Positions 9,614 to 55,207 are shown, counted from the stretch's first letter. The stretch is DNA of 64,000 nucleotides from Euryarchaeota archaeon UBA181 (GCA_002496725.1 DALI01000049.1:1772-65771), one strand, 5' to 3'. The notes: generated by a model from the sequence alone, not told the origin. Numbers and translations: made by a program.

Positions 9614-9674
9614 GACCACGGGTCCCGATAGGGTGGTTTGAACATTATCCGAGGCAGATGCACTCAAATGCCCG

Positions 9675-10475
9675 GTGCCATGGCATGCCATGGCTACAGG
9701 CATGTGGCAAACCCAAGCGGCATTCGCCATAGGCATAATCGGTGTTTTCGTTGGCTGGCGTGGCTCTATAGCTAGGATGACAGGTTTTTTCGATCTCTCG
9801 GGCTCGGTAAAATACCTACTTTTCGGCATTGTATCCGGGATGTTACTTGCATCAGCTGCCGACTCAATGATTTTGTCGGGAATTATCACCGGGCAAGTTA
9901 ATATCGTTACCGCGGCATCATATGCGCTACTGATAGCAATCGCAGAGTCGGCATTCGTACTATTCTTACTGGGGAGGCCCAGAAATGTGGCTCTGAGAGC
10001 GTCCCCTCCTTTCGGATGGACGTTAGGTCTTGGCATCGGTGCCATGCAAGCTTCCGTTCTGGCTTTCAGATTGTTTGACGAAGAACTCAATTCATCATTT
10101 TCGGGATTCTCCCCCTACTCAATATTGATCTCTTTGCTGATTTCCATTACTGCCTGCACAGGACATGCTATGCTGGCAACATACCAAGGAGCGATGATTC
10201 TAGAGCCGAGTAGACTCGGGCCATTCTTCTCAACATCCATTCTCAGGGCCATTCTTCTTCTTTCTGTTATCTTGTCAATTTTTACTCCAGTTATTTTGTT
10301 GGCTCCCTTGACTGCAATAGTTGCGGCTTGGGCCCCCTCCCAAGAGAGGTGGCTGCCCTCAGGCCTCACTCCAGCGGCTAGACAGGCATATAGGAGGACT
10401 ACAAGGCAGTCAGAGAGGCACAGGACTGCCTCAAACACCAGGAAAAGAGGCTCCCCAGTCAGTGAAGAGGAATAG
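9675..10475 (+). CDS. Hypothetical polytopic membrane protein of about 7 TM helices, divergent from srp54.
   Basis: 266 aa, hydrophobic helices with a basic C-terminal tail. The opposite strand here is only the spurious SRP54 extension. Confidence 0.4.
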   Translation: MPWHAMATGMWQTQAAFAIGIIGVFVGWRGSIARMTGFFDLSGSVKYLLFGIVSGMLLASAADSMILSGIITGQVNIVTAASYALLIAIAESAFVLFLLGRPRNVALRASPPFGWTLGLGIGAMQASVLAFRLFDEELNSSFSGFSPYSILISLLISITACTGHAMLATYQGAMILEPSRLGPFFSTSILRAILLLSVILSIFTPVILLAPLTAIVAAWAPSQERWLPSGLTPAARQAYRRTTRQSERHRTASNTRKRGSPVSEEE

Positions 10476-19900: not shown

Positions 19901-22292
19901 GCTTTACACAGGAGGTCTGACTTATGAGGTCGCAGAAGGATTCAGCGGTGCCACGCCATCAAAGTGGGTTTCATCAAATCTTTCTGACCCTCTTGACTGC
20001 CTCAGACTGAAACTTTTGGATATGCTTGGTTCAGAAGGCCCACAAACCCTAGAATCACTGAGTGACAGACTGCCCTTCCCAATAGCTCAAGTCGAGGCAG
20101 TACTTCAAGAGCTAGAAATGAGGAATTTAGTCTCAATTGGATTCTTCACCCAAACCGAGGAGGGTGAATTCATTCTCAGAGTTGACGAGTATAGGATCAC
20201 AGGAGGAAGCGTCGAAGTAGTAGACTACAGAACTCTCCAGACACTACTGCTCCAGAAATCATTTACGAAATTCGCTGAGCCTTCCGAGGCTATTAGATCA
20301 CTGGCATTAATTCAGAGAAGGGACGAACTACTCCACAGGGTGGAGAACTTTAGGTTCAGGGATTGGAAGGACTTTAAGCATGATAAAGACGTTTTCAATG
20401 GCAGACTTCTCCATAACAGGGTGGGCTATACTACCTTTGACCAGATACCAATGCTTCTGGGATTACGTTCAGAGCCTTGGATGGGTTCCTTAGAAGAAGA
20501 GCTTCTTGATAAGATTCCTGAAGATGGCATTACTAGGACAGAATTACTATCGGAATATCCAAGGGGCAAGGAAAACCAGCATATCCAGAAGAGCGTGAAA
20601 AGGGCGCTCTCAAATTTAGAACGACAACTGGTTGTGGCCAAGCAGTATCTCGATGTACCCAACAGGAAAAGATCGATAGCCATATTCAGGCGAATCCATG
20701 GCGTAGTAAAGCCGTTGGATTTTCCCGAGGCACTGTCTGCACTGATATCCAAAATAGGCCCTGTCAGATTACACACACTGAGATTCTTCGTCAGTAGGCC
20801 AGTCGAGGAACTAGCCGAGGTCCTCCGGGAATTAGAAACCGAAGGAAGCATATGCCGTGTAGTCGCTCTACAACCGGATCCAACCGATTACTATTCGTCG
20901 CATGTAGACGCCGAGAGGCTACTTTCTCCTATGCCCGAAGATAGGGAGATGCGTATCCTCGCCCAATCAGATCCCTTCTGCAGTCGTTTCATCCAAGAAG
21001 TTAGGATGATACTGAAGCAAGGATGGTACCATCCCGTCTTCAAAGGAGTGGACCCAATAGGGAGAATTTTGATGTTTGTAGTCAACGACTACCTGGAGAT
21101 AAAGGATGTCAATATCCCCCACTCATACCTAGATGAATTCAAATCAACCTTCAATGATCTTTTGGAAAACTACCGAGATCGACTCGTCGATGTTTCTGTA
21201 ATGCATGCTTTTAACGGAGTCCCTGTTCATGACTGCGATGATAATATTCAGAGTATTCTTTCTGAACTTGGATTCGTCTCAATGGGTGATGGTGAGAGAT
21301 ATATCCGAGGAGGAGTTGTTGAACCTAGATCTAGGAACAAGGTGAACAGACTTCTCTTCCACACTCACAATATCCATCAAATCAGTAGATGGGAAAATGA
21401 GACTTACGCTTTGAAGGAAATCAACGAATTGAGGGATGACTTCGCATTGAGGGGCCGTTGCGAAATGTTCAGGGTAGATCTACAATCTATGGCGGCAACC
21501 GAGCAATTGCATCAAGGAACAAATCTCAGGGGTCATCAGGTATGGGCAAGGCTCCCACATTTCCAGAGGCTCCTTGCGATTAGGAACGCCCCTCCTGACG
21601 ACGATGACTTTGGTATTCTTGAGTTCTTCAGGAGTCATAACGATCCAGCAGTATTCATGGAGAGACTAGCAATGCGCAGAGCTGAGTTTAGGAAATTAAT
21701 CTCTCCCCTGGTGAGAAGCGGTCACTTAGTTCAGGACTACAGAGGGGGGTTCAAGACCGTAGAGCCAGTGAAGGGCGTCGATCTCTGGACAATAAAGAGA
21801 ACATACCTGAGGGAACTAGTGGAGGACTATCCGGTCATCTCAATGAAGCAGTTTGAGAGGCTGGCAGGAACGCCTTTCTCACCTGAGGAAATTAGCGATG
21901 TCCTCCACGAATTTGAAGAGGATGGGACACTGATCAAAGGATTCCTCATAGATGATCAGCATGATATTAGTTGGGGCAGAAAAGACCTATTGGAGTCAGA
22001 GGGGATACCAAAGACAAGAGATTTGGTAATACCTCCCTCAGACCCATTGATACATTATTTTGGAGGTATCCTGCGAGAGAGATTTGGATTCGGTTCTGCA
22101 TATCTGGTGTTTCACAAGGAGGAGCCAATTGCGGCATTCAAGGCAAATACGAGAAATGCGACAATCGATGTAACAGACTTCGTGGGCGATTCAGAGTTAG
22201 AGAAAGAGGCCCTGAGGGTGATGAAAGAATTCGCATGGGAACATCAAATGCCCCTAACAGGGGACCTATATGAGAAAATGAGATCAAGATGA
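16950..22292 (+). CDS. lhr: Lhr-like large ATP-dependent helicase. It has an SF2 DExH core plus about 1300 aa of extra C-terminal domains (1780 aa in total).
   Basis: Helicase motifs FTEPQKVAIP, CSPTGSGKT, IIDEMHS, ISATM and QRIGRAGH. The C-terminal third is wHTH/YcaQ-like in character. Confidence 0.75.
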   Translation: MPKKMPIIEYVEDRMETEELLERLCPPVRNWFKDKFPDFTEPQKVAIPRILNGEHLLLCSPTGSGKTLTAFLTIIDDLVRRSLDGTLPDSVQCVYISPIKALANDIEKNLLGPLGEIKEKYLPSRAKEIKVGLRTGDTPQSERQKMLRKPPHILITTPESLGLGLASKRFRPILDQMKWFIIDEMHSLVPTKRGTHLSLSMALMDSVVSSDVQRIGISATMEPLDAVAEFLVASDPRESDIHSQNDDNESSELEIQPQKVAIAKISGDRELDLDIILPSPRFSSIPVKEILDHNVDRIKELAEAHTTTLVFVNTRNMTETVVQRLKIAGMEGVEGHHGSMDKAIRLDVESQLKKGLLRCVVSSSSLEMGIDIGSVDLVIQVGSPGSIATALQRIGRAGHQVDGLPRARFLPTSPHDLMELVALQMAILEGEMDLLKFPENSLDVLAQFLIGLTIIREWDIDDAYRLVTSSWPYKSLPYDDYIEVLDMLDEERRLWLDWEDNRFGKRGFAQMIYYTNIGTIAPDNSYLVFTGDGTLVGQLSSSFVSSLRNGDVFLLGGSTYRVASIRGTRVNVTPATGYRPTIPSWTGEANSRTHELSQAVLRLLSKISVGARMGTDYEPILTEALQLNRPVALALKQFLDEHVATTFQVPSNDRILIEQVDSPLPTYVVTTCRGRAFNLALGYLFAGIASKENIIIHELSFDENGFMAKLSHEVEISKIPEVFRNDTSEEILQRYMMDSQLFSKRFREVSSRSMLNPRRIGAEEVSPKQFQLKAEAIMTKHRQMEGSVIIREAMSEILNGDLDMGQLRNFISRMDSEDVRIVHRRVKMPSPLGMTLFMSAFEDLLSLRTRAYLIKDVDPEILRRLLGARSLATDLDREMIGEYYQSKVVVPRNSIDLLRLMDMGGGLERELTNPLYNSKLSGIEIPVIRKWVHELAERGLITKVRNTNHEQIDDKWFSMRMAGVHGTLGCLAVAGASEMEDLRALYTGGLTYEVAEGFSGATPSKWVSSNLSDPLDCLRLKLLDMLGSEGPQTLESLSDRLPFPIAQVEAVLQELEMRNLVSIGFFTQTEEGEFILRVDEYRITGGSVEVVDYRTLQTLLLQKSFTKFAEPSEAIRSLALIQRRDELLHRVENFRFRDWKDFKHDKDVFNGRLLHNRVGYTTFDQIPMLLGLRSEPWMGSLEEELLDKIPEDGITRTELLSEYPRGKENQHIQKSVKRALSNLERQLVVAKQYLDVPNRKRSIAIFRRIHGVVKPLDFPEALSALISKIGPVRLHTLRFFVSRPVEELAEVLRELETEGSICRVVALQPDPTDYYSSHVDAERLLSPMPEDREMRILAQSDPFCSRFIQEVRMILKQGWYHPVFKGVDPIGRILMFVVNDYLEIKDVNIPHSYLDEFKSTFNDLLENYRDRLVDVSVMHAFNGVPVHDCDDNIQSILSELGFVSMGDGERYIRGGVVEPRSRNKVNRLLFHTHNIHQISRWENETYALKEINELRDDFALRGRCEMFRVDLQSMAATEQLHQGTNLRGHQVWARLPHFQRLLAIRNAPPDDDDFGILEFFRSHNDPAVFMERLAMRRAEFRKLISPLVRSGHLVQDYRGGFKTVEPVKGVDLWTIKRTYLRELVEDYPVISMKQFERLAGTPFSPEEISDVLHEFEEDGTLIKGFLIDDQHDISWGRKDLLESEGIPKTRDLVIPPSDPLIHYFGGILRERFGFGSAYLVFHKEEPIAAFKANTRNATIDVTDFVGDSELEKEALRVMKEFAWEHQMPLTGDLYEKMRSR

Positions 22293-33840: not shown

Positions 33841-34676
33841 GAGGCATGACTGAATCATTCTCAGAAAAAAATAATCTCGGAGACGAGCTGAATTTAATGC
33901 TGGAATTGCTAGCAGTCGGTAAGGCAGAAGAAGCTAAGGTGATATCTCAAGAAATATTGGATAGATCCAGGTCCACCTCCGAGAGGAATCACGAGATAGA
34001 AGCTCGCGTCAGGGTTGAAAGAGCTTTGATTGGCGCCATCCCAGTCGAGACTATTGGGACTGAATTGAGATGGTGCGCGGATAGGCTGAATGCTATTTCA
34101 CCCGGCACCTCTTTACATGGCTTAGCACTATTGAATTTAGCTACATGGCATGCGAACAGGGGTGAGTCAATGATGGCTTTAGCTACTCATTCAGAAATAT
34201 CCATCAATAACGGACACCCTCTGGATATCAACTCTTTATCTCGATTAGAAGTTGGGAGGATACTATCCGCCATGAAAGATTACGGCCCTTCTATGAGGCA
34301 CCTATGGTCAGCTAGGAACGGATTCATTGAGCTTAAGATGTATCCCGAGGCAATATCCTCCTCACTAGAATGGCTCGATTTAGCTCTCGATGATGTTAGT
34401 TCGGATTCGCCAAACATGTCTTCGATATTAGAGAATGCCAAACCGCGCGCCGGGCCTGGCAATACCTATCTTTCCTCAAATCGAGATGATGTCAAATCCG
34501 TTGTTGAGTATCTGTTCCCACTACTAACCGAAGATCTATCTGGAATATCGAGAATTGATCTAGGGCTTATTCTGGAAGCCTCTGATAAATTAGACAGGGA
34601 AATTTGGAAGAACGCAATTTTAGCAAGGATTGATGAGATTCAAGATCCTAACATTTTGGAAGAGCTCCAATCATGA
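33837..34676 (+). CDS. Hypothetical all-alpha (TPR-like) protein.
   Basis: 279 aa with no recognisable motif. ATGA overlap with pfdB suggests co-transcription. Confidence 0.4.
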   Translation: MRGMTESFSEKNNLGDELNLMLELLAVGKAEEAKVISQEILDRSRSTSERNHEIEARVRVERALIGAIPVETIGTELRWCADRLNAISPGTSLHGLALLNLATWHANRGESMMALATHSEISINNGHPLDINSLSRLEVGRILSAMKDYGPSMRHLWSARNGFIELKMYPEAISSSLEWLDLALDDVSSDSPNMSSILENAKPRAGPGNTYLSSNRDDVKSVVEYLFPLLTEDLSGISRIDLGLILEASDKLDREIWKNAILARIDEIQDPNILEELQS

Positions 34677-35032
34677 CTCTTGATACGCTCTATCTCTTCT
34701 TCATCCCATGATAGCCTAGAGGGGACATCAATACACCATCCAACTTCCTCTATTGAGGAATCTTCGGATACCCATGGTTCCGGAACTGGTTCATCATTAA
34801 CTTCAACCAATACAACGACCCCATCTTTCACTAGCTTCGTTTCATATGAAATGGCGGTCCCAAGTAGGCCTGTTTCCTCGTATAGCTCCCTCAATGCGGC
34901 AACATCCCACTCCTCGTCTTTCATTACATTCCCTCCTGGTAGCTCCCAACCTCTCTCTCGATGCAAAACCATCACCCAAGGATTTCCAAGATCAGCTCCT
35001 TTACTAGAATAAACCCAACATACTACAAACAC
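34640..35032 (-). CDS. Nudix hydrolase.
   Basis: Nudix box GWELPGGNVMKDEEWDVAALRELYEETGL (Gx5Ex7REUxEExGU). Confidence 0.65.
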   Translation of the reverse strand: MFVVCWVYSSKGADLGNPWVMVLHRERGWELPGGNVMKDEEWDVAALRELYEETGLLGTAISYETKLVKDGVVVLVEVNDEPVPEPWVSEDSSIEEVGWCIDVPSRLSWDEEEIERIKSHDWSSSKMLGS

Positions 35033-36027
35033 TATTCTCCCTCCATTCTCCCACGTAGTCCTTCATGAATTTCCAACGCACCTTCGACGCCTTGGGTAGC
35101 CATCCTCCTGGACATAAAGAAAGCCTCAGAAACCCTACCACTGTTTATGAGCTCTTGGACTTCCAGCAAAGGGTCGTCTACAGATTCCCCCATCTCAGTT
35201 AATTCTGTATACTCTGGAGTAGCCATATCTTCCATCTTCCTAAGGAAGTCGACTCGTTGCTTCACCCCAGGAGATGTCCAAGCGGTCTTCTCGACTCCAT
35301 CGATTTCATTTTCCATCCTCACTTTAAACTCATCACGGACAGGATTAGATGGAAAGCATACTTGGGCTTGATCATAGCAAAGCCATGCATCACTATACTC
35401 CATTCTTCTCTCGTGCATTCTACCCAGAGAGGTCCAAGCCTCATGGTTAGAAGGCCTCTGAGCTAGAATTAACCTTGATAGCCTCAGGAATTGCTCTTCA
35501 TCTCCAGAATCCCTTATTCTTTCAATCCTTCTGGAGAAAAGAACATTCGCGCGCCTATCTCTAAGATCAAGCTTTCCAGCACGATCTAGGAAGTCTGCAA
35601 GTAGTGATTCTGAGACTGATACTAATTTCCACCAATGATCCGGATCTAGGGGGTCCGCATCCAATGAGGCATCTAGCAAAAGGGCGCCCGATGTAAGGAA
35701 GTCTATCCCGTCAAGTTGAATAAGATGCTCGGGCTTCCTTCCCAGGACGGCAAAAAGGTCTTCCAATGCCGATCTGATGCCTATTGTGTCCCCTAACAGT
35801 ACCTTCACCCTGACAAGATTCTTCCAGTTCTCAGGGTTTGTGAAATCGTACAGAACCGCCTGACGCGCGCTTTGCTCGCCCCACTCAAGATTAACGGATC
35901 TATCCGGGTCGACTACTCCATTGGCATCAAGTGCCAGGGAAACGTATTTCTCAGATTGGCTCCTGTGTCTATCTCCAAGACTTCTTCTTGGATGTTGCAG
36001 ACTATCTGAGATATCTAACTTCGACAT
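35032..36027 (-). CDS. Hypothetical helical protein.
   Basis: 331 aa. Shares a start/stop junction with the Nudix gene and lies 8 nt from the ubiD-like stop. Confidence 0.4.
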   Translation of the reverse strand: MSKLDISDSLQHPRRSLGDRHRSQSEKYVSLALDANGVVDPDRSVNLEWGEQSARQAVLYDFTNPENWKNLVRVKVLLGDTIGIRSALEDLFAVLGRKPEHLIQLDGIDFLTSGALLLDASLDADPLDPDHWWKLVSVSESLLADFLDRAGKLDLRDRRANVLFSRRIERIRDSGDEEQFLRLSRLILAQRPSNHEAWTSLGRMHERRMEYSDAWLCYDQAQVCFPSNPVRDEFKVRMENEIDGVEKTAWTSPGVKQRVDFLRKMEDMATPEYTELTEMGESVDDPLLEVQELINSGRVSEAFFMSRRMATQGVEGALEIHEGLRGRMEGE

Positions 36028-36034
36028 ATGGACA

Positions 36035-37348
36035 TCACAAAACCGACTCGTAAGGGGATCTATCTATGCCCGGGGTCAATGTTGCATCCATGCCAATCTT
36101 ACTGGTAATCCCATCTTCGCTACGACTTGGATCAAGACTCGAGCCCCTCTGTCCCGTCAAGATCATGGTATCCTTGTCAGGTTGCCATCTAGTCATCAGT
36201 GCCCACTCGACCCTTTTGGAATCAGAAATATCGATATCTGTGTCTACGACAACAACTTGCTTCATTGAGGGGTGCCCCTGAAAAGCCGCTTCTATAGCTA
36301 ACATACCGTCTCCTTCTTTCTTTGGTACTATCTGCACTACTGATGAAAGCCATCCACAACCACCATCGGTCATCTGCACGTCAACACATTCTACTACCTT
36401 GGAAACAGAATTCTTGATCGTTGGAGCCCTTGGCATCCCCATAAGAGTTCTATGCTCGATCCCAGTTGGAATAAGGGCATGGAATATTGGATCAATTCGA
36501 TGATTGACTTTCTCATATCTTATGACGTGCTCCTGCCTGATATCGTCTACCGTACCCGTGATATCCACGTAAGGCCCCTCATCATCCCTCTCAGTGGTTA
36601 TTTTGGCTTCCATGGCATATTCTGCGTCTGCCGGTACCATCACGCCATTAGGGAGTATTACCACCTTCAGAGGAGTTCCGTGTAGCTTTCTGTGTAGGGA
36701 CGAGGCGACTGTCAACTCATCCACATAATCCGAGAAAGACATAGCAGCTGCCAAAAGAACGGTTGGATCAGCACCATTCACTACGGCTATTGGAACGTCC
36801 TCCCCGGCTTCTGCAGCTTCTGCACTGATGGTCCTCAGATGCCTAGGGACAAGCCTAGCCACCGTATGCTCAGGATCTCTTAGTAACTGACGATGGAAAG
36901 ACACATTCCTGATTCCTGAATACTGAGCAACAATTATTGATGCCGATTGGTATCTACCTCCATCCTCTCTGAAATGCCAAGGAATTGGAATCTTCGTCAA
37001 ATCTACCTTTTCTTGACCCGACTGCATCACAGGAGCTTCAGACGCCTCTACAATCTCTGGCTCCGATGGATTTTCCATGGCCCATGCTAATACATCAATC
37101 AGGTCTCCAGGTGAGATATCAAACATTTCGCATAGCCTAGATTTTTCTAAAACATTCAGAGCGGCCCTATGGCCTGGTGCTTCATCTATCTCATCGAAAA
37201 TAAGTGGAACATCTCCTAGACGGTTAGAGGCATCTATCATGCCGTGCAATACACTAATTGTTTCCTTTACGTTCATGACGTCTCCAAGCATGTCCCGGAA
37301 GGCCATATCAGGGGGCGGAGTCAATACATGCTTGAATGTTAGTGACAT
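36035..37348 (-). CDS. UbiD-family prFMN-dependent (de)carboxylase. Candidate functions are anhydromevalonate-phosphate decarboxylase or a quinone-pathway decarboxylase.
   Basis: UbiD hallmarks KIPIPWHFREDGGRYQSASIIVA and ...E..DEGPYVDITGTVD. Length 437 aa. Confidence 0.75.
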   Translation of the reverse strand: MSLTFKHVLTPPPDMAFRDMLGDVMNVKETISVLHGMIDASNRLGDVPLIFDEIDEAPGHRAALNVLEKSRLCEMFDISPGDLIDVLAWAMENPSEPEIVEASEAPVMQSGQEKVDLTKIPIPWHFREDGGRYQSASIIVAQYSGIRNVSFHRQLLRDPEHTVARLVPRHLRTISAEAAEAGEDVPIAVVNGADPTVLLAAAMSFSDYVDELTVASSLHRKLHGTPLKVVILPNGVMVPADAEYAMEAKITTERDDEGPYVDITGTVDDIRQEHVIRYEKVNHRIDPIFHALIPTGIEHRTLMGMPRAPTIKNSVSKVVECVDVQMTDGGCGWLSSVVQIVPKKEGDGMLAIEAAFQGHPSMKQVVVVDTDIDISDSKRVEWALMTRWQPDKDTMILTGQRGSSLDPSRSEDGITSKIGMDATLTPGIDRSPYESVL

Positions 37349-40807: not shown

Positions 40808-42496
40808 TCAGTTAATTCTGATTAGTTGGAAATCAGTCATCTCTCTGAGTATGGATACTGAGTCGGAATCGCCTAGAATATCCAAGCACGAATGGGCCTT
40901 TGAATGGTGGAACATAGCCCTGTCCTTGGCATATTGTATAGATCCGTTGTCATGAAGTTCCTGCACGGCCTTAGCTAGTAGCTCTGATTCACACTCCCCT
41001 GATCCGTAAGCTTCTCTGAAGGATGGGAGCTCTTTCCCTGTGCCTAAAGCATGAATCGCTATCAGAGTTCTTTTTCCTTGAACAATATCGGAACCTGCGG
41101 GTTTACCCAGTGTCTCAGTATCTCCCGTGATGTCAATCAAATCATCCATCAACTGAAAGCACAGGCCCATATTAAGGCCCCATTCCGCCATTGATTCAAC
41201 TATTTGTTCCGTCGCCCCGGATAATTTTGCTCCTGTCATTGCACAGGTCTCGAACATTGCCGAAGTCTTACCAGCGATCATCTCTATGTATTCATCTTCA
41301 GAAACATGTTCCCTTTTCTCGAATTCCATATCAATCATCTGACCTTCAGCAACCCTCCTGACCATCTCACCAATAGATTTGACCAAGAAAACTAGGTCAT
41401 CCGAAATTATGTCATCAGACTCAGCGAGAATTTCAAATGCTACTGCGAGCATAGCATCTCCAGCATTAATTGCGGTCGCGTCATCATAAGCAACGTGTAC
41501 TGCATCCAAGCCCCTTCTAATCGGATCTTGATCCATGATGTCATCATGAACCAACGTGAAGTTGTGAATAATTTCTATAGATGCTCCAAGGGTCGTATGG
41601 CCTGCATTTGATTGGCCCACTGCGTCTCCAACAAGTTTCGGCAAGATAGCCCTCAACCTCTTTCCCCCTCCCGTGAAAAGGTGAGTCATTGCCCCATGCA
41701 ACCTTTCTTGTTTTATCTTAGACAAGCTCATCAGAATTTCATCCTCGACAGTTTCCCTATGCTCCTTTAATGCCGCCATTAGCGAAGAACCAGGTGATAT
41801 TACCACGCTTCCAATGTCCACTTCTCCGAATTTAACCACACCGACCCGTTTATTGATGCCTGTTAGATTTGGATAATCTCCCTCAAGGAACTCCATCCAT
41901 AGTAGTCTGAACCAAGGAGCTACTAGCTCGTCCTCCCACTTTCCAGAACCCTCCATAATATCTGATATCTCCTCTGAATCTACCCACATGTATGAAGAAA
42001 TTTCATTTTCATTAGGATTGATATCCAAGGAATCAACTTTAGTTATGAGTACGTGGTCAACTTCGTTTTCTAACCACTCATCGTTCCACCTGCACTTGTA
42101 TTGAAAAGCTCCAAGATGTACGAAAACTAGGGAATCAGCTCTCTCCTTGCTTATTCCCAATTCTTGAGGGAGCTTCCTTCTTGCGGCATTGATACAACCC
42201 TGTACGGGATCGTCATTTTCCCCTTCAATATCCAGGGGATGGCTACAGCAACTGTTGGCCCAGATCCCAGGGAATGTAATTTTCTCAGAGGAACGTTGCT
42301 GAATTAGTAGTCTATTCTCCGAATCAAAAATAAGTACACTGAATGCGCGATGTAGCAAACCCTCACCGTTATGGCAAACTAATTTGCTCGCAGCCCCCAT
42401 CATTTTGTCATTATGGTCAACCAGAATACACGACTCTGCCATCATTTCAGCCTGTGAGTTGTCATGCCCGGAAAGAGCGTTCGTCCCATCGGCCAT
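40808..42496 (-). CDS. Bifunctional fusion: type-1 isopentenyl-diphosphate isomerase (Nudix-fold IDI1) joined N-terminally to a trans-prenyl (geranylgeranyl) diphosphate synthase.
   Basis: IDI1 motifs HRAFSVLIFDSENRLLIQQRSSEKITFPGIWANSCCSHP in the first 200 aa. Polyprenyl synthase FARM LVHDDIMDQD and SARM FQLMDDLID in the C-terminal 350 aa. 562 aa in total. Confidence 0.75.
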   Translation of the reverse strand: MADGTNALSGHDNSQAEMMAESCILVDHNDKMMGAASKLVCHNGEGLLHRAFSVLIFDSENRLLIQQRSSEKITFPGIWANSCCSHPLDIEGENDDPVQGCINAARRKLPQELGISKERADSLVFVHLGAFQYKCRWNDEWLENEVDHVLITKVDSLDINPNENEISSYMWVDSEEISDIMEGSGKWEDELVAPWFRLLWMEFLEGDYPNLTGINKRVGVVKFGEVDIGSVVISPGSSLMAALKEHRETVEDEILMSLSKIKQERLHGAMTHLFTGGGKRLRAILPKLVGDAVGQSNAGHTTLGASIEIIHNFTLVHDDIMDQDPIRRGLDAVHVAYDDATAINAGDAMLAVAFEILAESDDIISDDLVFLVKSIGEMVRRVAEGQMIDMEFEKREHVSEDEYIEMIAGKTSAMFETCAMTGAKLSGATEQIVESMAEWGLNMGLCFQLMDDLIDITGDTETLGKPAGSDIVQGKRTLIAIHALGTGKELPSFREAYGSGECESELLAKAVQELHDNGSIQYAKDRAMFHHSKAHSCLDILGDSDSVSILREMTDFQLIRIN

Positions 42497-42534
42497 GCTA
42501 TTGCGAGAAACCTACGACATATAACAGAATCCAA

Positions 42535-43329
42535 TCAACCTAGTATTTTGGTGCCTATGGTGGTCCCACTATCTATTAGCTGGCTTATTCTGTCCGGATG
42601 ATTCCCATTGATGAACCAAACCTCTTCAATATCAGTGGATATTGCCGATGCTCTCGAGGCCTTCAGAACTATTCCCCCTGTCACATCCTGTTCCGCATTA
42701 TGCATTGTTTCGACGAATTCCCCCTCCTTCCATGTTTCCAATAATCTTGATCCTTTCATATCAGGGGGCCTATCCAACATGCCATCAGCATCTCCAAGAA
42801 GAAAAATACAGTGTGTAACGGAGGGTACTTCTAGGGAAATCCTAGCCATCAGATCATCACCTGATAGAATTCCGAATTCATTATCTCCCGGGACGCTAAC
42901 TACGTCTCCGAAGGTTATCGGTACTATCTCACTTGGAATATTTTCAAAAATTCCGATGTCACCCTCAAATCCCTCTCCAGTTCCTGTAGCCCATTCAGAA
43001 GGTGGAAAAACCCTGCTATTGACTCCCTGTCTCCTCAATGAGCTAGTCACAAATTCACAGAGCTCAACCATATCACTTCTTACTTCCCCTACAGCTTCAC
43101 GTTGTTGAACAGATATCTCAGGTCTCAACCCCCCGGATAGTGACCATTTCTTGGCTAGAAGATGTCCAAATGATCCAGCTCCATGTACTATGATGACCGA
43201 GTGTCCATTCGAAATTAGTTTCGAAACTTCTTTGCTAATGGCGTCTATTATGTCAATTTTTGGAGTCTTAAATAACGACTTATCAGTGATTAAACCCCCG
43301 CCTAACTTGACTACAATCCTCGCCGCCAT
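42535..43329 (-). CDS. ipk: Isopentenyl phosphate kinase (amino-acid-kinase fold).
   Basis: IVVKLGGGLITDK...HGAGSFGH, typical of IPK. Start taken at MAARIVVK. Confidence 0.7.
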   Translation of the reverse strand: MAARIVVKLGGGLITDKSLFKTPKIDIIDAISKEVSKLISNGHSVIIVHGAGSFGHLLAKKWSLSGGLRPEISVQQREAVGEVRSDMVELCEFVTSSLRRQGVNSRVFPPSEWATGTGEGFEGDIGIFENIPSEIVPITFGDVVSVPGDNEFGILSGDDLMARISLEVPSVTHCIFLLGDADGMLDRPPDMKGSRLLETWKEGEFVETMHNAEQDVTGGIVLKASRASAISTDIEEVWFINGNHPDRISQLIDSGTTIGTKILG

Positions 43330-43412
43330 GATGTTGCAGAGGCACTGGTTAGATTTGGGTTCTCCTATCAATTAATTGAAAGGTTCATTTCTATGAGGGT
43401 TTTGGAAGTATC

Positions 43413-44536: not shown

Positions 44537-45667
44537 GTGAGAGCAGTAATTGTAGATTGGATGAGAAGCCCGTTTCATCGTGCACACAAGGGAAACTTGT
44601 CAGCGATCCGCCCTGATGAAATGCTAGGGCAAGTAACTAAGTCACTTCTTACAAGGAATAGTATCAATCCCAAAGATATTGATGATATAATCGTAGGTTG
44701 CGCCTATCCCGAGGGAGAGCAGGGATACAATATCGGTAGATTAACGGCTTTCCTGGGCAATATTCCTTCAGATGTTCCAGGGATGACAATCAATAGGCTA
44801 TGTGGCTCCTCAATGCAGGCCATATTAGTTGCCGCCTCAAACATAGAGTCTGGATGGGGAGAATGCTTTCTTTGTGCTGGTATCGAATCTATGAGTAGGG
44901 TGAAGAGAAGGGGTTTCAACTGGAGTCCTCACCCAATCTTGAAGGACGAATTTCCTGAAGCATACATAAACATGGGAATAACCGCTGAGAATGTTGCAGA
45001 TTCCTGGGGAATATCTAGGATATCTCAAGAGCAATTCGCACTCGATTCTCACATGAAATCAATTTATGCCAGGGATAATGGAAATTTTGATGATGAGATA
45101 TGCCCAATAAATACCGATGGAGGAGTCATCAGTGAAGATGGCTGTATCAGAGAAACTAGCCTAGAATCAATGTCTAAATTGAGTCCTGTTTTCCGAGAAA
45201 ATGGATCTGTCACTGCCGCCACTTCTTCCCCTCTTACGGATGGAGCAGTTTGTATGATCGTTTGTAGCTCGGAATTCGCCGAGATTAATGGTTTGGAGCC
45301 ATTAGCCAGAATCGTATCAAGCGCAGTCACTGGTTGCCCCCCAGAAATAATGGGCATAGGCCCGATCAAATCTACTGAGATCGCACTTAATAGATCAGGG
45401 TGGACCATCGATGACGTCGATGTCTTTGAAATCAACGAAGCTTTCTCTTCACAGAGTCTCGCAGTCATTAATGATCTTTCAATCGACTACCAGAAAGTGA
45501 ATTTAGACGGTGGAGCTATCTCAATTGGCCATCCCTTGGGTGCCTCGGGAGCGAGGATAGTCGGAAAGGCCGCTTCTATACTCAGGCGTACTGGTTCCAA
45601 TAAGGCCCTAGCTACTATGTGCATAGGAGGGGGAATGGGTATTTCCATCACTTTAGAGAGCATCTAG
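44537..45667 (+). CDS. Acetyl-CoA C-acetyltransferase (thiolase II type).
   Basis: NRLCGSSMQA contains the active-site Cys. C-terminal GHPLGASGAR and CIGGGMG motifs. Confidence 0.8.
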   Translation: MRAVIVDWMRSPFHRAHKGNLSAIRPDEMLGQVTKSLLTRNSINPKDIDDIIVGCAYPEGEQGYNIGRLTAFLGNIPSDVPGMTINRLCGSSMQAILVAASNIESGWGECFLCAGIESMSRVKRRGFNWSPHPILKDEFPEAYINMGITAENVADSWGISRISQEQFALDSHMKSIYARDNGNFDDEICPINTDGGVISEDGCIRETSLESMSKLSPVFRENGSVTAATSSPLTDGAVCMIVCSSEFAEINGLEPLARIVSSAVTGCPPEIMGIGPIKSTEIALNRSGWTIDDVDVFEINEAFSSQSLAVINDLSIDYQKVNLDGGAISIGHPLGASGARIVGKAASILRRTGSNKALATMCIGGGMGISITLESI

Positions 45668-51774: not shown

Positions 51775-52989
51775 ATGGCAGTCGAGGCGATTTCATTTTC
51801 AGATTCGCGATGGAGGAGCAGGCTTTCTTCCATGCAAGTACCACTGGCTGTCAGCTCCAATAGTTCCGCACTCAATTGCCTAGAAACACTAATTTCCCAT
51901 GGAAGACTGTCTTTCAGTCAAGGTATTGATCTAATGAAAAATCCCGATCTTTCTTCTGTTACTTCTTTGGCTAACATGGTCAAGTCTGCACGATTCTCCA
52001 GTCATGTCTTCTTCAATGAAAATTTACATGTAAATTCGACTAATATTTGTGTTCTCGCATGTAGATTCTGTGCCTTTCGAAAGGGACCAAGGCATCCAGA
52101 CGCCTATTCACTAGATGTGAACCAATATCTGGAAAGAATAGATCCCTACTCTTCCAGAATTGATGAGGTCCATACAGTTGGTGGGCTACACCCTAGCTGG
52201 ACAGTATCAGAGTATTGCAAACTATTCTCTAGTGTTAAAGAAAAGTATCCGCACATACACATCAAAGCACTCACAGCGGTTGAGATAAAGCATCTTTCCT
52301 CTAGGTCTTCACTTTCTTTCCACCAAACTCTTTCCACACTTGCCGAGGCAGGTCTGAACTCATTACCAGGAGGGGGGGCAGAGATTCTTGTGGATAAGGT
52401 CAGAGATAGAATCTGCAGGGGCAAGGAATCATCCGCCGAGTATCTGGAGATTCACGGCATTGCACACTCCCTTGGAATGCCAACAAACTGTACAATGTTA
52501 TTCGGAACCGTTGAATCGATAGAAGATAGAATTACACATCTAGTCAGACTAAGAGAGCAACAAGATGAATCATGTGGTTTCCAATGCTTTGTCCCATACC
52601 CGTTTCTTCCGGATAAATCTAGGCTCCCTGAAGCACAGCTTGCAACCGGTCAGGAAATCATCAGAATGATTTCCGTTTCTAGACTTATGCTAGACAATAT
52701 ACCTCACATCAAGGCCTACAGGATGAACATTGGAGATAAATTATCTTCATTCGCTATCAATTGTGGCGCCGATGATGTCGATGGTACAGTTGGTCATGAG
52801 GAGATAATGCATGAGGCAGGTAGTAAGACCAGCCTCAGTACAACTTCTGAACAAATGGCCAGGATGATAGTCTCAGCTGGTTCCATACCAGTAAAGAGAA
52901 ATTCATCATACACCCAATTTGAGATTATTGAACTTCCCGAGTCTAGAAATTCAAAATCACTTCCTATTCTTACTATGGAGGGGAATTAG
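51775..52989 (+). CDS. Radical SAM enzyme of the futalosine-pathway MqnC/MqnE family (aminofutalosine synthase or cyclic dehypoxanthinyl-futalosine synthase).
   Basis: NICVLACRFCAF CxxxCxxC-variant cluster typical of MqnC/MqnE/CofH-type enzymes. Adjacent to mqnA. Confidence 0.55.
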   Translation: MAVEAISFSDSRWRSRLSSMQVPLAVSSNSSALNCLETLISHGRLSFSQGIDLMKNPDLSSVTSLANMVKSARFSSHVFFNENLHVNSTNICVLACRFCAFRKGPRHPDAYSLDVNQYLERIDPYSSRIDEVHTVGGLHPSWTVSEYCKLFSSVKEKYPHIHIKALTAVEIKHLSSRSSLSFHQTLSTLAEAGLNSLPGGGAEILVDKVRDRICRGKESSAEYLEIHGIAHSLGMPTNCTMLFGTVESIEDRITHLVRLREQQDESCGFQCFVPYPFLPDKSRLPEAQLATGQEIIRMISVSRLMLDNIPHIKAYRMNIGDKLSSFAINCGADDVDGTVGHEEIMHEAGSKTSLSTTSEQMARMIVSAGSIPVKRNSSYTQFEIIELPESRNSKSLPILTMEGN

Positions 52990-53785
52990 TATCAGTTGGA
53001 CAGATGTCATAGGTCGAGTTTCTTTCTCAAATTGCGATCCAATATTTGATGGGATTAATCAAGAATGGACAATACTTTCCGCTCCCCCTGCGTGGCTCAC
53101 AGGCCATATCATGCGAAGAGACTGTATCACAGCACCAATTCCTTCGGCAGATTATGCGAAGAATAGTGAAGAGTTACTTCTCCTTCCAGATATTGGTATA
53201 GTCAGTAGCGGGGAAGTAGGGTCTGTACTACTTTTTGGTAATCGACCCATAGAGAAAATGAGAGATATCGCACTACCAACCGACTCTTCCACATCTAAGG
53301 TATTACTGAGCTGGATAGTTAGAAATAGAGGTTTAGACCCTAAATTTGTAGAGTCTGGGCCAGATATCAACTCAATGTTAGAGAAATGCGATGGAGCTCT
53401 GTTGATTGGAGATAGGGCAATATTGGCATCTCTCTCAAATCCAGACCTAGTTAGAATGGATCTAGGTGCAGAGTGGACAAGAATCACTGGTCTCCCAATG
53501 GTCTTCGGTGTTTTTGTTGCGAGGAGGGATTCCTCTGAAGAAATTCTAAGGAATGCACATTCAGATATGATTAATCAGGTTGAATTATTTGATAATGATA
53601 AAGTTTGGAGGGATGGCGTAATAAGAAGAACTTCTAAGAAATTAGGATTCCCAGTAGACAGGGTGGAAGAATATTTCAGGACTGAGGTCAGGAATAGAAT
53701 GTCTGAAGACGACATCAAAGGATTAATGACTTTCCTGAAGGAAGCATGCGACATGGACGAAGAACCAATTTGGCTAGATATCTAA
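52919..53785 (+). CDS. mqnA: Chorismate dehydratase MqnA-like (PF02621 family).
   Basis: N-terminal IGRVSFSNCDPIF resembles the IGxISYLNxxP motif. ...SVLLFGN, STSKVLL and DGALLIGDRAIL are also present. The only canonical start is TTG 52919, overlapping the upstream gene by 71 nt. Confidence 0.5.
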   Translation: MRLLNFPSLEIQNHFLFLLWRGISISWTDVIGRVSFSNCDPIFDGINQEWTILSAPPAWLTGHIMRRDCITAPIPSADYAKNSEELLLLPDIGIVSSGEVGSVLLFGNRPIEKMRDIALPTDSSTSKVLLSWIVRNRGLDPKFVESGPDINSMLEKCDGALLIGDRAILASLSNPDLVRMDLGAEWTRITGLPMVFGVFVARRDSSEEILRNAHSDMINQVELFDNDKVWRDGVIRRTSKKLGFPVDRVEEYFRTEVRNRMSEDDIKGLMTFLKEACDMDEEPIWLDI

Positions 53786-54261
53786 TCCGTGTAGTCCAGC
53801 TTTTTGCTGGAGACCCACTCTAGAAGATCTAATGCAACTTCGCATGATTCTGCGACCACGGTATCCTTGTCATCTTTGAATTTCTCAAGTACTGAGAGGG
53901 CCGTTCTATCACCTATGGCACCTAATGCTTCTGCCGCTTCATGCCTAACCATTACATCCTCATCAAAGTCCTGCAATCTATCGATTAAGTATGGAAGAGC
54001 GGCTGAATCTTGCATTTGCCCCATGACATATGCGATCTCATGTTTCAGTAATGCCGATGAAGATCCAAAAGCCGCGGCTAGGGCTTCTACTGATTCCTGC
54101 CCCCCTATGTTCCTAAGTGCAAATAAGGCCCTCATCCTCTGGAACATTTTCTCATCTTCATCACAAATCGTCATTCTCAGTTTTCTCACATCATCAATAT
54201 TACTCGGTGGTGCCGGATCAACAGAATCGAATTCACTGACCTCTGGTCTTTTCTCTTCCAT
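53782..54261 (-). CDS. Half-length deoxyhypusine hydroxylase (DOHH)-like HEAT-repeat protein with two His-Glu metal-binding motifs.
   Basis: FALRNIGG...SALLKHEIAYVMGQMQDSAALPYL...DVMVRHEAAEALGAIGD...ESCEVALDLLEW is collinear with each half of eukaryotic DOHH. The N-terminus SVDPAPPS matches the linker that begins the second DOHH half. Confidence 0.55.
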   Translation of the reverse strand: MEEKRPEVSEFDSVDPAPPSNIDDVRKLRMTICDEDEKMFQRMRALFALRNIGGQESVEALAAAFGSSSALLKHEIAYVMGQMQDSAALPYLIDRLQDFDEDVMVRHEAAEALGAIGDRTALSVLEKFKDDKDTVVAESCEVALDLLEWVSSKKLDYTD

Positions 54262-55119
54262 TTATTCACCCGACCCAACGAAAACTATTGAATCAACATC
54301 AAGATCTTCTCTTACCATTCCAATTTCCTGACCCCTTTTTAGAAAAAGTCGAATTGCTTCCCTACCATCTTCTCCGTAATCCAAGGTTCGATTATTGACA
54401 TACATGCCGACGAATTCTTCGTTGGTTTCGTCATCAATTCCCCTTCCCCATTCCTTGGCGAATTTGAGAGCCTCCGTTGGATTATTGAGAGAGTGCTTGA
54501 TACTGTTACGAACATCTTCAGTTATCATTTCACAGAGCTCAATCCCAAGATCCTTCCTCACTACATTTCCCCCCAGGGGTAGTGGGAGGCCAGTTTCTTC
54601 ATTCCACCATACTCCCAGGTCTAAAACTAGATTCACGCCTTCATCTTTCCAAGTTAGTTGACCTTCATGAATAATCACACCAACATCATAGTCGCCTCTC
54701 TGAACGGCAGGCATTATGTCATCAAATGGTACAACTTCGTATCTCACATCTCCCAAAGCGAGTTTTAGAGCCAAATAAGCACTAGTCCCGACTCCTGGTA
54801 TCGCGAAGACTTTCCCTCTAGCATCTTCCACTGTCATCTCTTCCCTTGAAATTATCATCGGACCATAACCCTCTCCCATGGATGCTCCACAATTCATAAG
54901 ATGATACTTTTCAGATATCTCTGGAAATGAGTGAATACTGACGGCAGAAACCTCATAATCACCATTGATAGCATGTTTATTCAATGTCTCAATATCCAAC
55001 AGAACATGTTCATAACCCCTCCCTCCGGTATCTATTGCTCCTGTCGTCATGGCATGGAACATGAATGCATCATCTGGGTCTGGGGAGTGTCCGACTCGGT
55101 AAGAGCGCGCCTCGTTCAT
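54262..55119 (-). CDS. mqnD: 1,4-dihydroxy-6-naphthoate synthase MqnD-like (PF02621 family).
   Basis: N-terminal YRVGHSPDPDDAFMFHAM signature of the MqnA/MqnD family. 285 aa. Confidence 0.55.
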   Translation of the reverse strand: MNEARSYRVGHSPDPDDAFMFHAMTTGAIDTGGRGYEHVLLDIETLNKHAINGDYEVSAVSIHSFPEISEKYHLMNCGASMGEGYGPMIISREEMTVEDARGKVFAIPGVGTSAYLALKLALGDVRYEVVPFDDIMPAVQRGDYDVGVIIHEGQLTWKDEGVNLVLDLGVWWNEETGLPLPLGGNVVRKDLGIELCEMITEDVRNSIKHSLNNPTEALKFAKEWGRGIDDETNEEFVGMYVNNRTLDYGEDGREAIRLFLKRGQEIGMVREDLDVDSIVFVGSGE

Positions 55120-55207
55120 GTACCGTCGCAAGCAATTAGATTCAAAATTCCTCCGTGTCAGAACCCTCCGTAGTAAGAGTGAATAGTCGGTTGTATTACG
55201 GGACTAC

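Follow-up and report, generated by a model that had tools for sequence, protein, structure and literature searches.

The mevalonate route yields only IPP, and a GGPP synthase uses one DMAPP per three IPP. Archaeal type-I GGPP synthases have an established chain-length signature: a Phe at position -5 to the FARM, a small residue at -4 and no insertion in the FARM. In archaea, the FMN-dependent type-2 IPP isomerase (IDI2) is the rule (PMC3533463). Among the closest described gene arrangements is the MVK-IPK-IDI2-(RNase J)-IdsA cluster of methanogens and Methanomassiliicoccales, in which isopentenyl phosphate kinase (IPK), isomerase and GGPP synthase (GGPPS) stand in the same order as in Marine Group II (MGII). 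We find MVK-IPK-IDI2-RNaseJ-GGPPS in Methanosarcinaceae (L072), and IPK-IDI2-GGPPS, at the same slot as in MGII, in Methanomassiliicoccales (L074) and in a basal relative (L069). A previous reading of this DNA (the sequence-only reading) had stated that archaea typically use IDI2 and a separate GGPPS, and this is what these three loci contain.

The window, i.e., the whole stretch of 64,000 nucleotides from Euryarchaeota archaeon UBA181 that was analysed, belongs to the MGIIb lineage (Thalassarchaeaceae). A scan of the window against Rfam gives zero hits. Here, a type-1 isomerase (IDI1) and a prenyl diphosphate synthase are parts of one gene, IDI1::GGPPS (40808..42496, - strand). The ORF runs from an ATG at 42496 to the stop codon at 40808-40810, with zero internal stops and zero frame changes. 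Pfam detects two domains in the protein, NUDIX (residues 48-189) and polyprenyl_synt (residues 264-513, matching positions 2-250 of a model with 251), and the NCBIfam model TIGR02150 scores above its cut-off. The ORF, Pfam and NCBIfam together uphold the claim that a single 562-aa ORF fuses a type-1 IDI to a trans-prenyl synthase, and the domain search that had been proposed places both domains in one continuous reading frame without a frameshift. The AF2 model of the fusion has a mean pLDDT of 84.3 and a pTM of 0.64.

The inter-domain junction (41783..41884, - strand, residues ~205-238) consists of the native IDI1 C-terminal tail, ~12 residues and the native GGPPS N-terminus. It is collinear with the separate genes of an unfused relative (L080), where the IDI1 tail (..IINKGELI, then stop) is followed by the GGPPS start (LSLPESVLSSLKEH). 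Unfused relatives differ from the fusion by a one-nucleotide frame offset over a TTGA overlap, and frame errors do occur in some long-read assemblies of unfused lineages, e.g., P0489, a 304-aa chimera. Both would fit an artefact in which adjacent IDI1 and GGPPS genes were merged through a spurious 1-nt indel. However, the identical 562-aa protein (P0001) is found in 8 contigs from five independent sources (NCBI, JGI, Logan, ENA, Tara), and hundreds of divergent orthologues (50-83% identity) all keep the same frame, which excludes a frameshift or mis-merge; we consider the chance of such an artefact negligible. The best 120 database relatives are all two-domain proteins of 560-594 aa, at 63-100% identity. 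The junction also argues against the artefact: it is the least conserved part of the protein (0.42-0.61), yet G224 is invariant there, and AF2 models it with a pLDDT of ~74-88 and a beta-hairpin at 220-233, which suggests that the linker is not floppy. Among the fusions, both length (about 12, 16 or 21 residues) and sequence of the linker vary.

The N-terminal domain (41843..42496, - strand, residues 1-218) is assigned to the metal-dependent, Nudix-fold type-1 IPP isomerases, in their "long", eukaryote-like subtype. From Pfam, only the generic NUDIX family is obtained (43.7 bits), and the conserved gene block holds another small Nudix gene (34640..35032). These two observations would agree with a generic Nudix hydrolase, or with a dead regulatory or scaffolding module with no isomerase activity. 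However, two models pass their curated cut-offs, TIGR02150 (IPP_isom_1, 154.0 bits against 105.8, residues 23-198) and PRK03759 (137.0 bits against 127). The closest solved structure is human IDI1, 2dho (E=7e-48, residues 12-218), at ~42% identity in a trimmed 198-column domain alignment; E. coli IDI matches at 1e-14 only. A Foldseek comparison of the AF2 isomerase domain with human IDI1, 2i6k, gives a TM-score of 0.86 and an rmsd of 2.3 Å. The domain also fills the exact slot that IDI2 occupies in the relatives.

The active-site residues point the same way. The catalytic pair is Cys84 and Glu145 (C67 and E116 in E. coli), and the metal ligands H42, H49, H86, E143 and E145 correspond to H25, H32, H69, E114 and E116 of E. 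coli. Further, E112 corresponds to the second-metal Glu87, Y133 to Tyr104 and W195 to the active-site Trp161. Conservation was assessed in 124 relatives of about 50-100% identity: K38, H42, H49, R68, K72, C84, E112, Y133, E143, E145 and W195 are unchanged in all of them, and H86 in 123. The curated models, the similarity to human IDI1 and these residues rule out a generic Nudix assignment, and we regard a domain without isomerase function as very improbable. The N-terminal half thus looks like a genuine IDI1 with the catalytic Cys and Glu, as had been claimed.

The C-terminal domain (40808..41791, - strand, residues 236-562) matches PF00348 over its full length with 222.8 bits and is placed among the short-chain trans-prenyl diphosphate synthases, and within these in the archaeal type-I GGPPS class. 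The FARM is D318-D319-I-M-D322 and the SARM D451-D452-L-I-D455, and their six Asp are invariant in the 124 relatives, in agreement with the earlier description of a complete synthase with both motifs. F313 (-5 to the FARM) and T314 (-4) are invariant as well, and the FARM, DDIMD, contains no 2-residue insertion. Since the IDI1 residues, the FARM, the SARM and Phe313 are invariant in the 124 relatives, both halves are under purifying selection.

Is the product GGPP? Every GGPPS equivalog model is missed (NF040698 IdsA_Meth, 268.8 against 468; NF041003 GGPP_syn, 244.8 against 500), and models for other chain lengths score similarly (gerfarn_diphsyn 231 bits, FPPsyn 181 bits). In Methanothermobacter, IdsA synthesises both FPP and GGPP. 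Futalosine-type menaquinone genes lie within the 64-kb window, and no ether lipids have ever been detected for MGII (PMC6962369). All this can be counted for a main product other than GGPP, i.e., FPP or a C15/C20 mixture, C25 GFPP or the primer from which a menaquinone side chain is built, with the fusion as a general isoprenoid entry point instead of a GGPPS dedicated to lipids. However, the free-standing GGPPS of L069, L074 and L080 fall under the same cut-offs, so the models cover less than the whole family, and the identity of the product cannot be read from HMMs alone. The free-standing GGPPS of L069, L072 and L074 carry an identical chain-length signature, and the best solved relatives of the synthase half are archaeal GGPPS, 5jfq (1.5e-61) and 1wy0; the AF2 model aligns to 5jfq with a Foldseek TM-score of 0.92. 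The MGII core genome also includes a GGGP synthase (PMC6336850). From the Phe -5 rule and the similarity to characterised archaeal GGPPS, the product is most probably C20 GGPP, and we consider a different main product unlikely.

The sequence-only reading went one step further and assigned this C20 synthesis to ether lipids, for which the analysis gives no support. MGII are without G1P dehydrogenase, the nature of their membrane lipids is not known, and classical archaeal lipids are not found in places that MGII dominate (PMC6962369). The menaquinone genes in the window need a prenyl donor too. Any fate that is assigned to GGPP in MGII is putative.

Next to the fusion lies the gene for IPK (42535..43329, - strand), with 264 aa from the likely ATG at 43329, the position at which the earlier annotation also ended. 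The mechanical ORF is longer (42535..43371, TTG at 43371); the full-length match to NF040647 IPPK_Arch (158 bits, cut-off 120) begins at ORF residue 19, and orthologues are called at 262-264 aa. The spacer from the IPK stop to the start of the fusion (42497..42534, - strand) is 38 nt, with a TTATAT, read from the sequence, ~25-30 nt 5' of the ATG. In almost every MGII locus, IPK is a direct neighbour of the fusion. It had been described as lying immediately downstream; the adjacency holds, the direction does not. Both genes are on the - strand and IPK has the higher coordinates on the + strand, so IPK is upstream of the fusion in transcription. By annotation, the gene order IPK then IDI1::GGPPS is the pathway order IP -> IPP -> DMAPP -> GGPP, and the two genes are probably co-transcribed.

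A survey of relatives finds the same fusion in ~68 MGII genomes at GTDB species level, with both families represented, in one chromosomal slot. The order of the surrounding block is ProRS-CoaBC-thiolase-Tpt1-IPK-[fusion]-EF2-S7-S12-UbiD. As judged from these genomes, the fusion belongs to the core genome throughout the MGII lineage (Poseidoniales). A search with the IDI2 of L069 matched no cluster labelled as MGII and no populous marine cluster, in keeping with the loss of IDI2. In the literature search no earlier description of the fusion in MGII was found, weak evidence of absence as most subscription papers lie outside that search; apparently, the fusion is undescribed so far, although it is made of well-known parts. 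The public labels are split: NCBI uses "isopentenyl-diphosphate delta-isomerase" and JGI "GGPP synthase type I". Reconstructions of the pathway from either label would miss one of the two functions.

The proposed extension of this cluster to a partly clustered alternative-mevalonate module fares less well. Both additional genes exist where they had been placed. The UbiD-family decarboxylase (36035..37348, - strand) matches TIGR00148 (290 bits, cut-off 244.85) and both UbiD and UbiD_C in Pfam, and is a candidate anhydromevalonate-phosphate decarboxylase whose membership of the system is uncertain. In the PDB it is closest to 6h6x, a generic UbiD-class decarboxylase (200 bits), the menaquinone-type model TIGR03701 gives 81 bits against 496, and no partner genes of such an enzyme (phosphomevalonate dehydratase, UbiX) are found within the 64-kb window. 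The thiolase (44537..45667, + strand) is a bacterial-type acetyl-CoA C-acyl/acetyltransferase (TIGR01930, 405 bits against 240.55). The next-best models are FadA-like, i.e., it is a FadA/AtoB-like enzyme; the block of one locus (L030) has no thiolase gene, and fatty-acid degradation belongs to the core genome of MGII (PMC6336850). Any connection of the thiolase with the mevalonate pathway would be putative.

The UbiD gene keeps its syntenic position whichever of the three states the IPK-isomerase-GGPPS slot is in. However, EF-2, S7 and S12 separate it from IPK and the fusion, and a Zn-ribbon ORF and Tpt1 lie on the thiolase side. Since synteny across MGII extends over 13 genes, unrelated housekeeping genes among them, the conserved proximity carries no specific information. 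Only IPK-IDI-GGPPS can be recognised as a functional cluster, and comparison with the methanogen order MVK-IPK-IDI2-(RNase J)-GGPPS indicates that this cluster is ancestral.

In the third state of the slot, IPK, IDI1 and GGPPS are unfused, and start and stop codons overlap by 4 nt (TTGA; L080-83, L087-88). The occurrence of IDI2, separate IDI1 and fused states in one slot suggests that a eukaryote-like IDI1 took the place of IDI2 in situ and that the pair was then fused. We propose that in an ancestral IPK-IDI2-GGPPS cluster the FMN-dependent IDI2 was swapped for the IDI1, and that the translationally coupled IDI1 and GGPPS were joined when the stop codon in the overlap was lost. The nearest free-standing IDI1 belong to other marine archaea, to Ca. 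Kentron and Endozoicomonas (gammaproteobacterial entries, ~44-50%) and to eukaryotes (~41-45%). As the IDI1 domain tree is star-like and these relatives are mixed, no donor can be named.

The IPK+GGPPS tree shows the series from IDI2 through separate IDI1 to a single fusion (bootstrap 87). However, in the trees of EF-2, S7, S12, UbiD, IPK and Tpt1 the fused L061 groups with the unfused L080/L087 (95-100%). The stepwise polarity was set aside, as it is contradicted by these independent housekeeping markers. Two independent fusions were also considered, from the GGPPS topology with L089, but this is weakened by the junction of L089, which resembles a fusion broken by one frame change (one assembly only). 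On these trees, the state has changed at least two times among close relatives, and the direction could be either way. Outside the group, other metagenomic IDI1-polyprenyl_synt fusions are found as singleton clusters (P0233, P0234, P0242, P0171), and by their sequences these are clearly events independent of the MGII fusion.

How could the fused protein work? We suggest that the N-terminal IDI1 interconverts IPP and DMAPP with Cys84 and Glu145 as acid-base pair and a site for a divalent metal, and that the C-terminal synthase condenses DMAPP with three IPP, most probably to C20 GGPP. The IPK -> IDI1::GGPPS unit would then encode the three final steps, by which isopentenyl phosphate becomes GGPP. 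The fusion would set a 1:1 stoichiometry of the enzymes, and DMAPP would be made beside its only committed consumer. The two activities, the C20 product and the benefit of the fusion are all predicted from the gene, and channelling of IPP/DMAPP into C20 is putative. The explanation as a whole, a bifunctional IDI1::GGPPS as second cistron after IPK, with a history of IDI2 displacement and fusion and present throughout MGII, seems to us very probable.

Close relatives manage without the fusion, so any advantage of it is not obligatory. The unfused lineages are diverse and long-lived, their 4-nt start/stop overlap could give a fusion by a single indel, the state changed repeatedly among close relatives and the linker is variable. 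It is accordingly conceivable, and a reading to which we give appreciable if minor weight, that the fusion brings no kinetic channelling but arose by near-neutral loss of a stop codon and is kept for equimolar expression or because it is harmless. However, there is no exception to the fusion across the large, old MGII core clade, independent IDI-prenyl synthase fusions have arisen from different parts (e.g., P0233), and the linker is modelled as structured. Flux also rises when IDI and CrtE are brought together: as summarised in PMC7322351, artificial assembly of the two raised the carotenoid titre 5.7-fold (Kang et al. 2019), which shows that closeness of these two enzymes can matter.

MGII are among the most abundant surface-ocean archaea and are uncultured. 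A strictly conserved fusion that hard-wires IPP isomerisation to C20 synthesis would imply that the cells invest in GGPP-level isoprenoids, and it offers one expressible ORF for defining product and flux. The fused, the 4-nt-overlapping and the IDI2 lineages together form a natural experiment on the fusion of consecutive enzymes. More speculatively, and in our view rather doubtfully, the fusion could be the sole MGII gateway from C5 units to all isoprenoids, fused convergently at least twice in Poseidoniia as well as in unrelated microbes, after the reduced-flavin-dependent IDI2 had been swapped for a metal-dependent, eukaryote-like IDI1 as the lineage took up an aerobic, sunlit lifestyle. If this is true, the gene would be a clean synapomorphy-like marker, and a tractable experimental handle on which isoprenoid lipids, if any, MGII make.

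Compared with the known systems, the MGII locus can be described as a syntenic descendant of the methanogen-type MVK-IPK-IDI2-IdsA cluster. However, an unrelated type-1 isomerase fused to the synthase replaces the FMN-dependent IDI2, and MVK lies outside the block. With archaeal type-I GGPPS/IdsA (Geoglobus acetivorans 5JFQ, Pyrococcus horikoshii 1WY0, methanogen IdsA) the fusion shares the all-alpha fold, the FARM, the SARM, the Phe at -5 and the gene slot after IPK and IDI; it differs by the additional N-terminal IDI1 of 235 residues and by its scores under the lineage-specific NCBIfam equivalog cut-offs. With human IDI1 (2DHO, 2I6K, 2ICJ) it shares the Nudix fold, the Cys/Glu pair, the His/Glu metal site, the lid Trp of the active site and a C-terminal WW..L tail. 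However, human IDI1 is free-standing and monomeric, while the C-terminus of the MGII IDI1 runs on into the prenyl synthase, in an archaeal host, and for archaea IDI2 is the rule (PMC3533463).

Fusions of an IDI to a downstream enzyme are known or can be found elsewhere. The metagenomic P0233, P0234, P0242 and P0171 have the same domain order as the MGII fusion, IDI1 then polyprenyl_synt, but are built from a short E. coli-type IDI and either a bacterial FPP synthase (NF045485, 352 against 275), as in P0233, or a divergent "type 3" synthase. The diatom PtIDISQS (Fabris et al. 2014, as described in PMC12168105) is likewise a natural polypeptide of an IDI-1 and a downstream prenyl-chain enzyme. 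There, the partner, squalene synthase, does not catalyse the step that follows, and this fusion belongs to a eukaryote and arose independently. Finally, the engineered IDI-CrtE (GGPPS) assemblies contain the same two activities and give a measured gain in a GGPP-derived product; in the summary of PMC7322351 these rely on artificial peptide tags, with enzymes from bacteria or yeast, while in MGII the fusion is natural and covalent. The MGII protein is thus a natural counterpart to the IDI-GGPPS assemblies of metabolic engineers.

The IDI1-GGPPS fusion gene is a single ORF of 562 codons on the minus strand of the window (40808..42496). As claimed in the sequence-only reading, it joins a type-1 IPP isomerase (IDI1) to a complete prenyl synthase: Pfam identifies a NUDIX domain (residues 48-189) and a full-length polyprenyl synthase domain (residues 264-513), and the type-1 isomerase model TIGR02150 of NCBIfam matches the N-terminal part with 154 bits, above its curated cut-off of 105.8. 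In NCBIfam the C-terminal part is closest to the archaeal short-chain synthase models IdsA and GGPP_syn, scoring below the narrow equivalog cut-offs of both. For residues 12-218, human IDI1 (E=7e-48) is a much closer solved structure than E. coli IDI (1e-14), and residues 236-559 match the archaeal GGPP synthases 5jfq and 1wy0. The building parts of the fusion are two thoroughly known enzyme families.

The same fusion was found in a survey of relatives in a collection of 5.8 billion proteins, where the best 120 are all 560-594 aa long with both Pfam domains (63-100% identity), and eight contigs from five sources (NCBI, JGI, Logan, ENA, Tara) record the identical protein. The N-terminal half could have been a generic Nudix domain; however, in an alignment of 124 family members with E. 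coli IDI and human IDI1, the catalytic Cys84 and Glu145 are invariant in the family. So are the metal ligands (His42, His49, Glu143, Glu145), Glu112 for the second metal, Tyr133, Trp195 and three residues that bind diphosphate (Lys38, Arg68, Lys72), the sole exception being the metal ligand His86 (123 of the 124). In the synthase half, the two DDxxD motifs, FARM (D318, D319, D322) and SARM (D451, D452, D455), are likewise invariant, as is Phe313 at -5 relative to FARM, and FARM has no insertion of two residues. According to established rules on chain length in this enzyme family, Phe at -5 without a FARM insertion is the archaeal type-I GGPPS signature; free-standing GGPPSs of relatives have the identical signature.

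From 46 sequences, AlphaFold2 models the protein with a mean pLDDT of 84.3 and a pTM of 0.64. At the junction (residues about 205-238), pLDDT is about 74-88 and a beta-hairpin is present, so that in the model the junction is not a disordered tether. Using Foldseek, the synthase half aligns to its solved counterpart with TM 0.92 and the IDI1 half with TM 0.86; no PDB entry covering both domains was found. Judged from the sequences, the fusion gene is genuine and lineage-wide, and we predict a bifunctional IDI1-GGPPS with both halves functional.

The window's UbiD protein has an identical counterpart in GenBank, listed for a Candidatus Thalassarchaeaceae archaeon, which places the window in MGIIb. 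A GTDB scan with one genome per species gave 79 loci, about 68 with a full-length fusion. Their labels (Poseidoniales, Thalassarchaeaceae, Thalassarchaeum, MGII MED-G34/G37) show that both MGII families are represented, and the fusion-bearing loci keep the block ProRS-CoaBC-TM protein-thiolase-Tpt1-Zn-ribbon-IPK-[fusion]-EF2-S7-S12-UbiD-TPR-Nudix. One locus, L030 (PBMR01000009.1), has the fusion in a block without IPK and thiolase, and a typical MGII block deposited as 'Pedosphaera sp.' (L068, NYYT01000056.1) probably reflects mis-binning of its contig. When 1.84 billion cluster representatives were searched exhaustively with HMMER, two close two-domain representatives were added (Poseidonia, 51%; P0122, 42%), along with a few clearly unrelated IDI1-prenyl synthase fusions. 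Unlike the MGII fusion, P0233 combines a short E. coli-type IDI with a genuine FPP synthase of bacterial type, P0234 and P0242 are assembled from other parts, and the synthase part of P0171 is 'type 3'. The order IDI1-then-prenyl-synthase thus arose several times, and only the MGII version forms a large family. Public databases list the protein under one-function names, and no description of the MGII fusion was found in the literature searched; since coverage of the literature is incomplete, we call it undescribed only provisionally.

The evolutionary context of the gene is instructive. The adjoining ORF is an isopentenyl phosphate kinase (IPK; NCBIfam, 158 bits against a cut-off of 120), whose likely ATG at 43329 is also where the sequence-only reading ended this region. 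Its adjacency was correctly noted, but it is not downstream: both genes are on the minus strand and IPK lies 38 nt upstream, so that the transcriptional order IPK, isomerase, synthase is the pathway order. In a more divergent relative (L069, EF-2 72% identical) the slot holds IPK, a type-2 IDI (IDI2; TIGR02151, 359 bits), a free-standing GGPPS and EF-2. Methanomassiliicoccales have contiguous IPK-IDI2-GGPPS and Methanosarcinaceae MVK-IPK-IDI2-RNase J-GGPPS; the IPK-isomerase-GGPPS cluster is thus old in archaea. A search with the L069 IDI2 had only five small clusters as close matches; beyond these came generic Thermoplasmata sequences, nothing like the thousands of MGII fusion entries, which, below whole-genome level, is consistent with loss of IDI2 in MGII.

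A third state, seen in L080-83 and L087-88, has IPK, a free-standing IDI1 of 224-235 aa and a GGPPS of 332 aa, the IDI1 TGA stop overlapping the GGPPS TTG start as TTGA. Many independent assemblies show it, among them contigs of 1.2-1.9 Mb, and its IDI1 family is diverse (at least 14 clusters, 59-89% identity). The fusion linker is collinear with the unfused IDI1 tail followed by the GGPPS N-terminus, and a one-nucleotide frame change across the overlap would be enough to interconvert the two states. Such diverse unfused relatives make plausible a neutral origin of the fusion by stop-codon loss, with no channelling, an account we consider less likely than not.

A rooted IPK+GGPPS tree suggests a tidy series ending in a single fused clade (bootstrap 87). 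This series is contradicted by synthase-free markers (EF-2; EF-2+S7+S12+UbiD with or without IPK; EF-2+S7+IPK+Tpt1), in which the fused L061, whose single ORF of 553 aa was verified and occurs on four assemblies, groups with the unfused L080/L087 at 95-100%, together forming the sister of the fused MGII core. The state therefore changed at least twice, by two fusions or by one fusion and one fission. The unfused L089 groups with the MGII core at 79% in the GGPPS tree; its junction, known from one assembly, resembles a fusion broken by one frame change.

Within the block, the unfused lineages carry an MreB/actin-like gene (MreB_Mbl, Salactin, Volactin; L080 751-1779, L087 1-795, L089 757-1779) that is absent at that position in the window and the MGII core. 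In L089, a deep-sea (Guaymas) relative, EF-2 and S7 are separated by an inserted fatty-acid desaturase gene (9018-10175). In a further group of marine archaea, the genes of a 226-aa IDI1 and, after it, a 327-aa prenyl synthase overlap as ATGA (L085 5001-6661, L086 2917-4577) in a different neighbourhood (aldehyde dehydrogenase, GXGXG protein, ABC transporter); this synthase groups with Methanomassiliicoccales, not MGII.

The fusion IDI1 domain is of the long, eukaryote-like subtype (a trimmed 198-column alignment gives 42% identity with human IDI1, against 29% with E. coli IDI). The nearest free-standing IDI1s, at similar distances, are marine archaeal, two gammaproteobacterial entries and eukaryotic, and the domain tree singles out no donor. 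In the part of the literature covered, Haloarchaea and Thaumarchaeota are the only archaea recorded with IDI1, probably through transfer (PMC3533463). In the domain tree, a free-standing 232-aa IDI1 (P0131) falls within the MGIIb fusion domains (48% identity in the trimmed alignment, about 50% in the search match), although its 2981-bp contig is attributed to Candidatus Kentron sp. LPFa, a gammaproteobacterial symbiont of ciliates; this could reflect gene transfer or a mis-binned short contig.

The proposal of a wider alternative-mevalonate module found no support, as UbiD lies beyond EF-2, S7 and S12, which separate it from the IPK-fusion cluster, and whole-block synteny takes in many unrelated genes. 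UbiD (TIGR00148, 290 bits) is a plausible candidate anhydromevalonate-phosphate decarboxylase if MGII use the Aeropyrum-type route (PMC9128505), an enzyme that NCBIfam and PDB comparisons do not separate from other UbiD enzymes. A TPR protein and a small stand-alone Nudix (130 aa) lie directly downstream on the same strand (34640-36027), an order kept across MGII and both unfused lineages; a functional link to UbiD is possible. The thiolase is a bacterial-type enzyme, and the MGII core genome includes fatty-acid degradation (PMC6336850).

Regarding the fate of GGPP, MGII keep GGGP/DGGGP synthases and lack G1P dehydrogenase, and water dominated by MGII yielded none of the known archaeal lipids (PMC6962369). 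In most MGII no beta-carotene cleavage enzyme is annotated (PMC6336850). Futalosine-type menaquinone genes in the window (51775-55131), namely a radical-SAM CofH/MqnC-like gene (51775..52989, +) and two VitK2_biosynth (MqnA/MqnD-like) genes (52919..53785, +; 54262..55131, -) with a HEAT-repeat ORF in between, imply a prenyl-donor need apart from lipids. In one Thalassarchaeaceae subgroup (L016 9664-14614; also L017, L019, L020, L023, L025, L027, L062, L064), an insert of about 5 kb between fusion and EF-2 holds an FAA-hydrolase-family gene, a DnaJ and an MMPL/Patched-type transporter of 1089 aa that has a sterol-sensing domain, so that a lipid-type transporter adjoins the isoprenoid genes. Elsewhere, the window contains a 923-aa ORF without Pfam match (36-2807) in its only raised-G+C part (0.55 vs about 0.45), a 611-aa SRP54 ORF (8255-10090) with an unusually long N-terminal extension and domains from about residue 174, and an Lhr-type helicase of 1780 aa (16950-22292) that carries DEAD_assoc and WH_Lhr domains.

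The mevalonate route yields IPP only, so a supply of DMAPP is obligatory. From the established enzymology of both families we infer that IPK, IDI1 and synthase would act in sequence: IPK would produce IPP, the IDI1 domain would equilibrate IPP and DMAPP, and the synthase domain, expected to dimerise as other family members do, would make GGPP from one DMAPP and three IPP. Fusion would then fix the stoichiometry and put the DMAPP source at its consumer. Closeness of IDI and GGPPS can raise flux: an artificial IDI-CrtE assembly increased carotenoid 5.7-fold (PMC7322351). Diatoms have an IDI-squalene synthase fusion (PMC12168105) that is natural like that of MGII, but its partner is squalene synthase, whereas the MGII partner is GGPPS.
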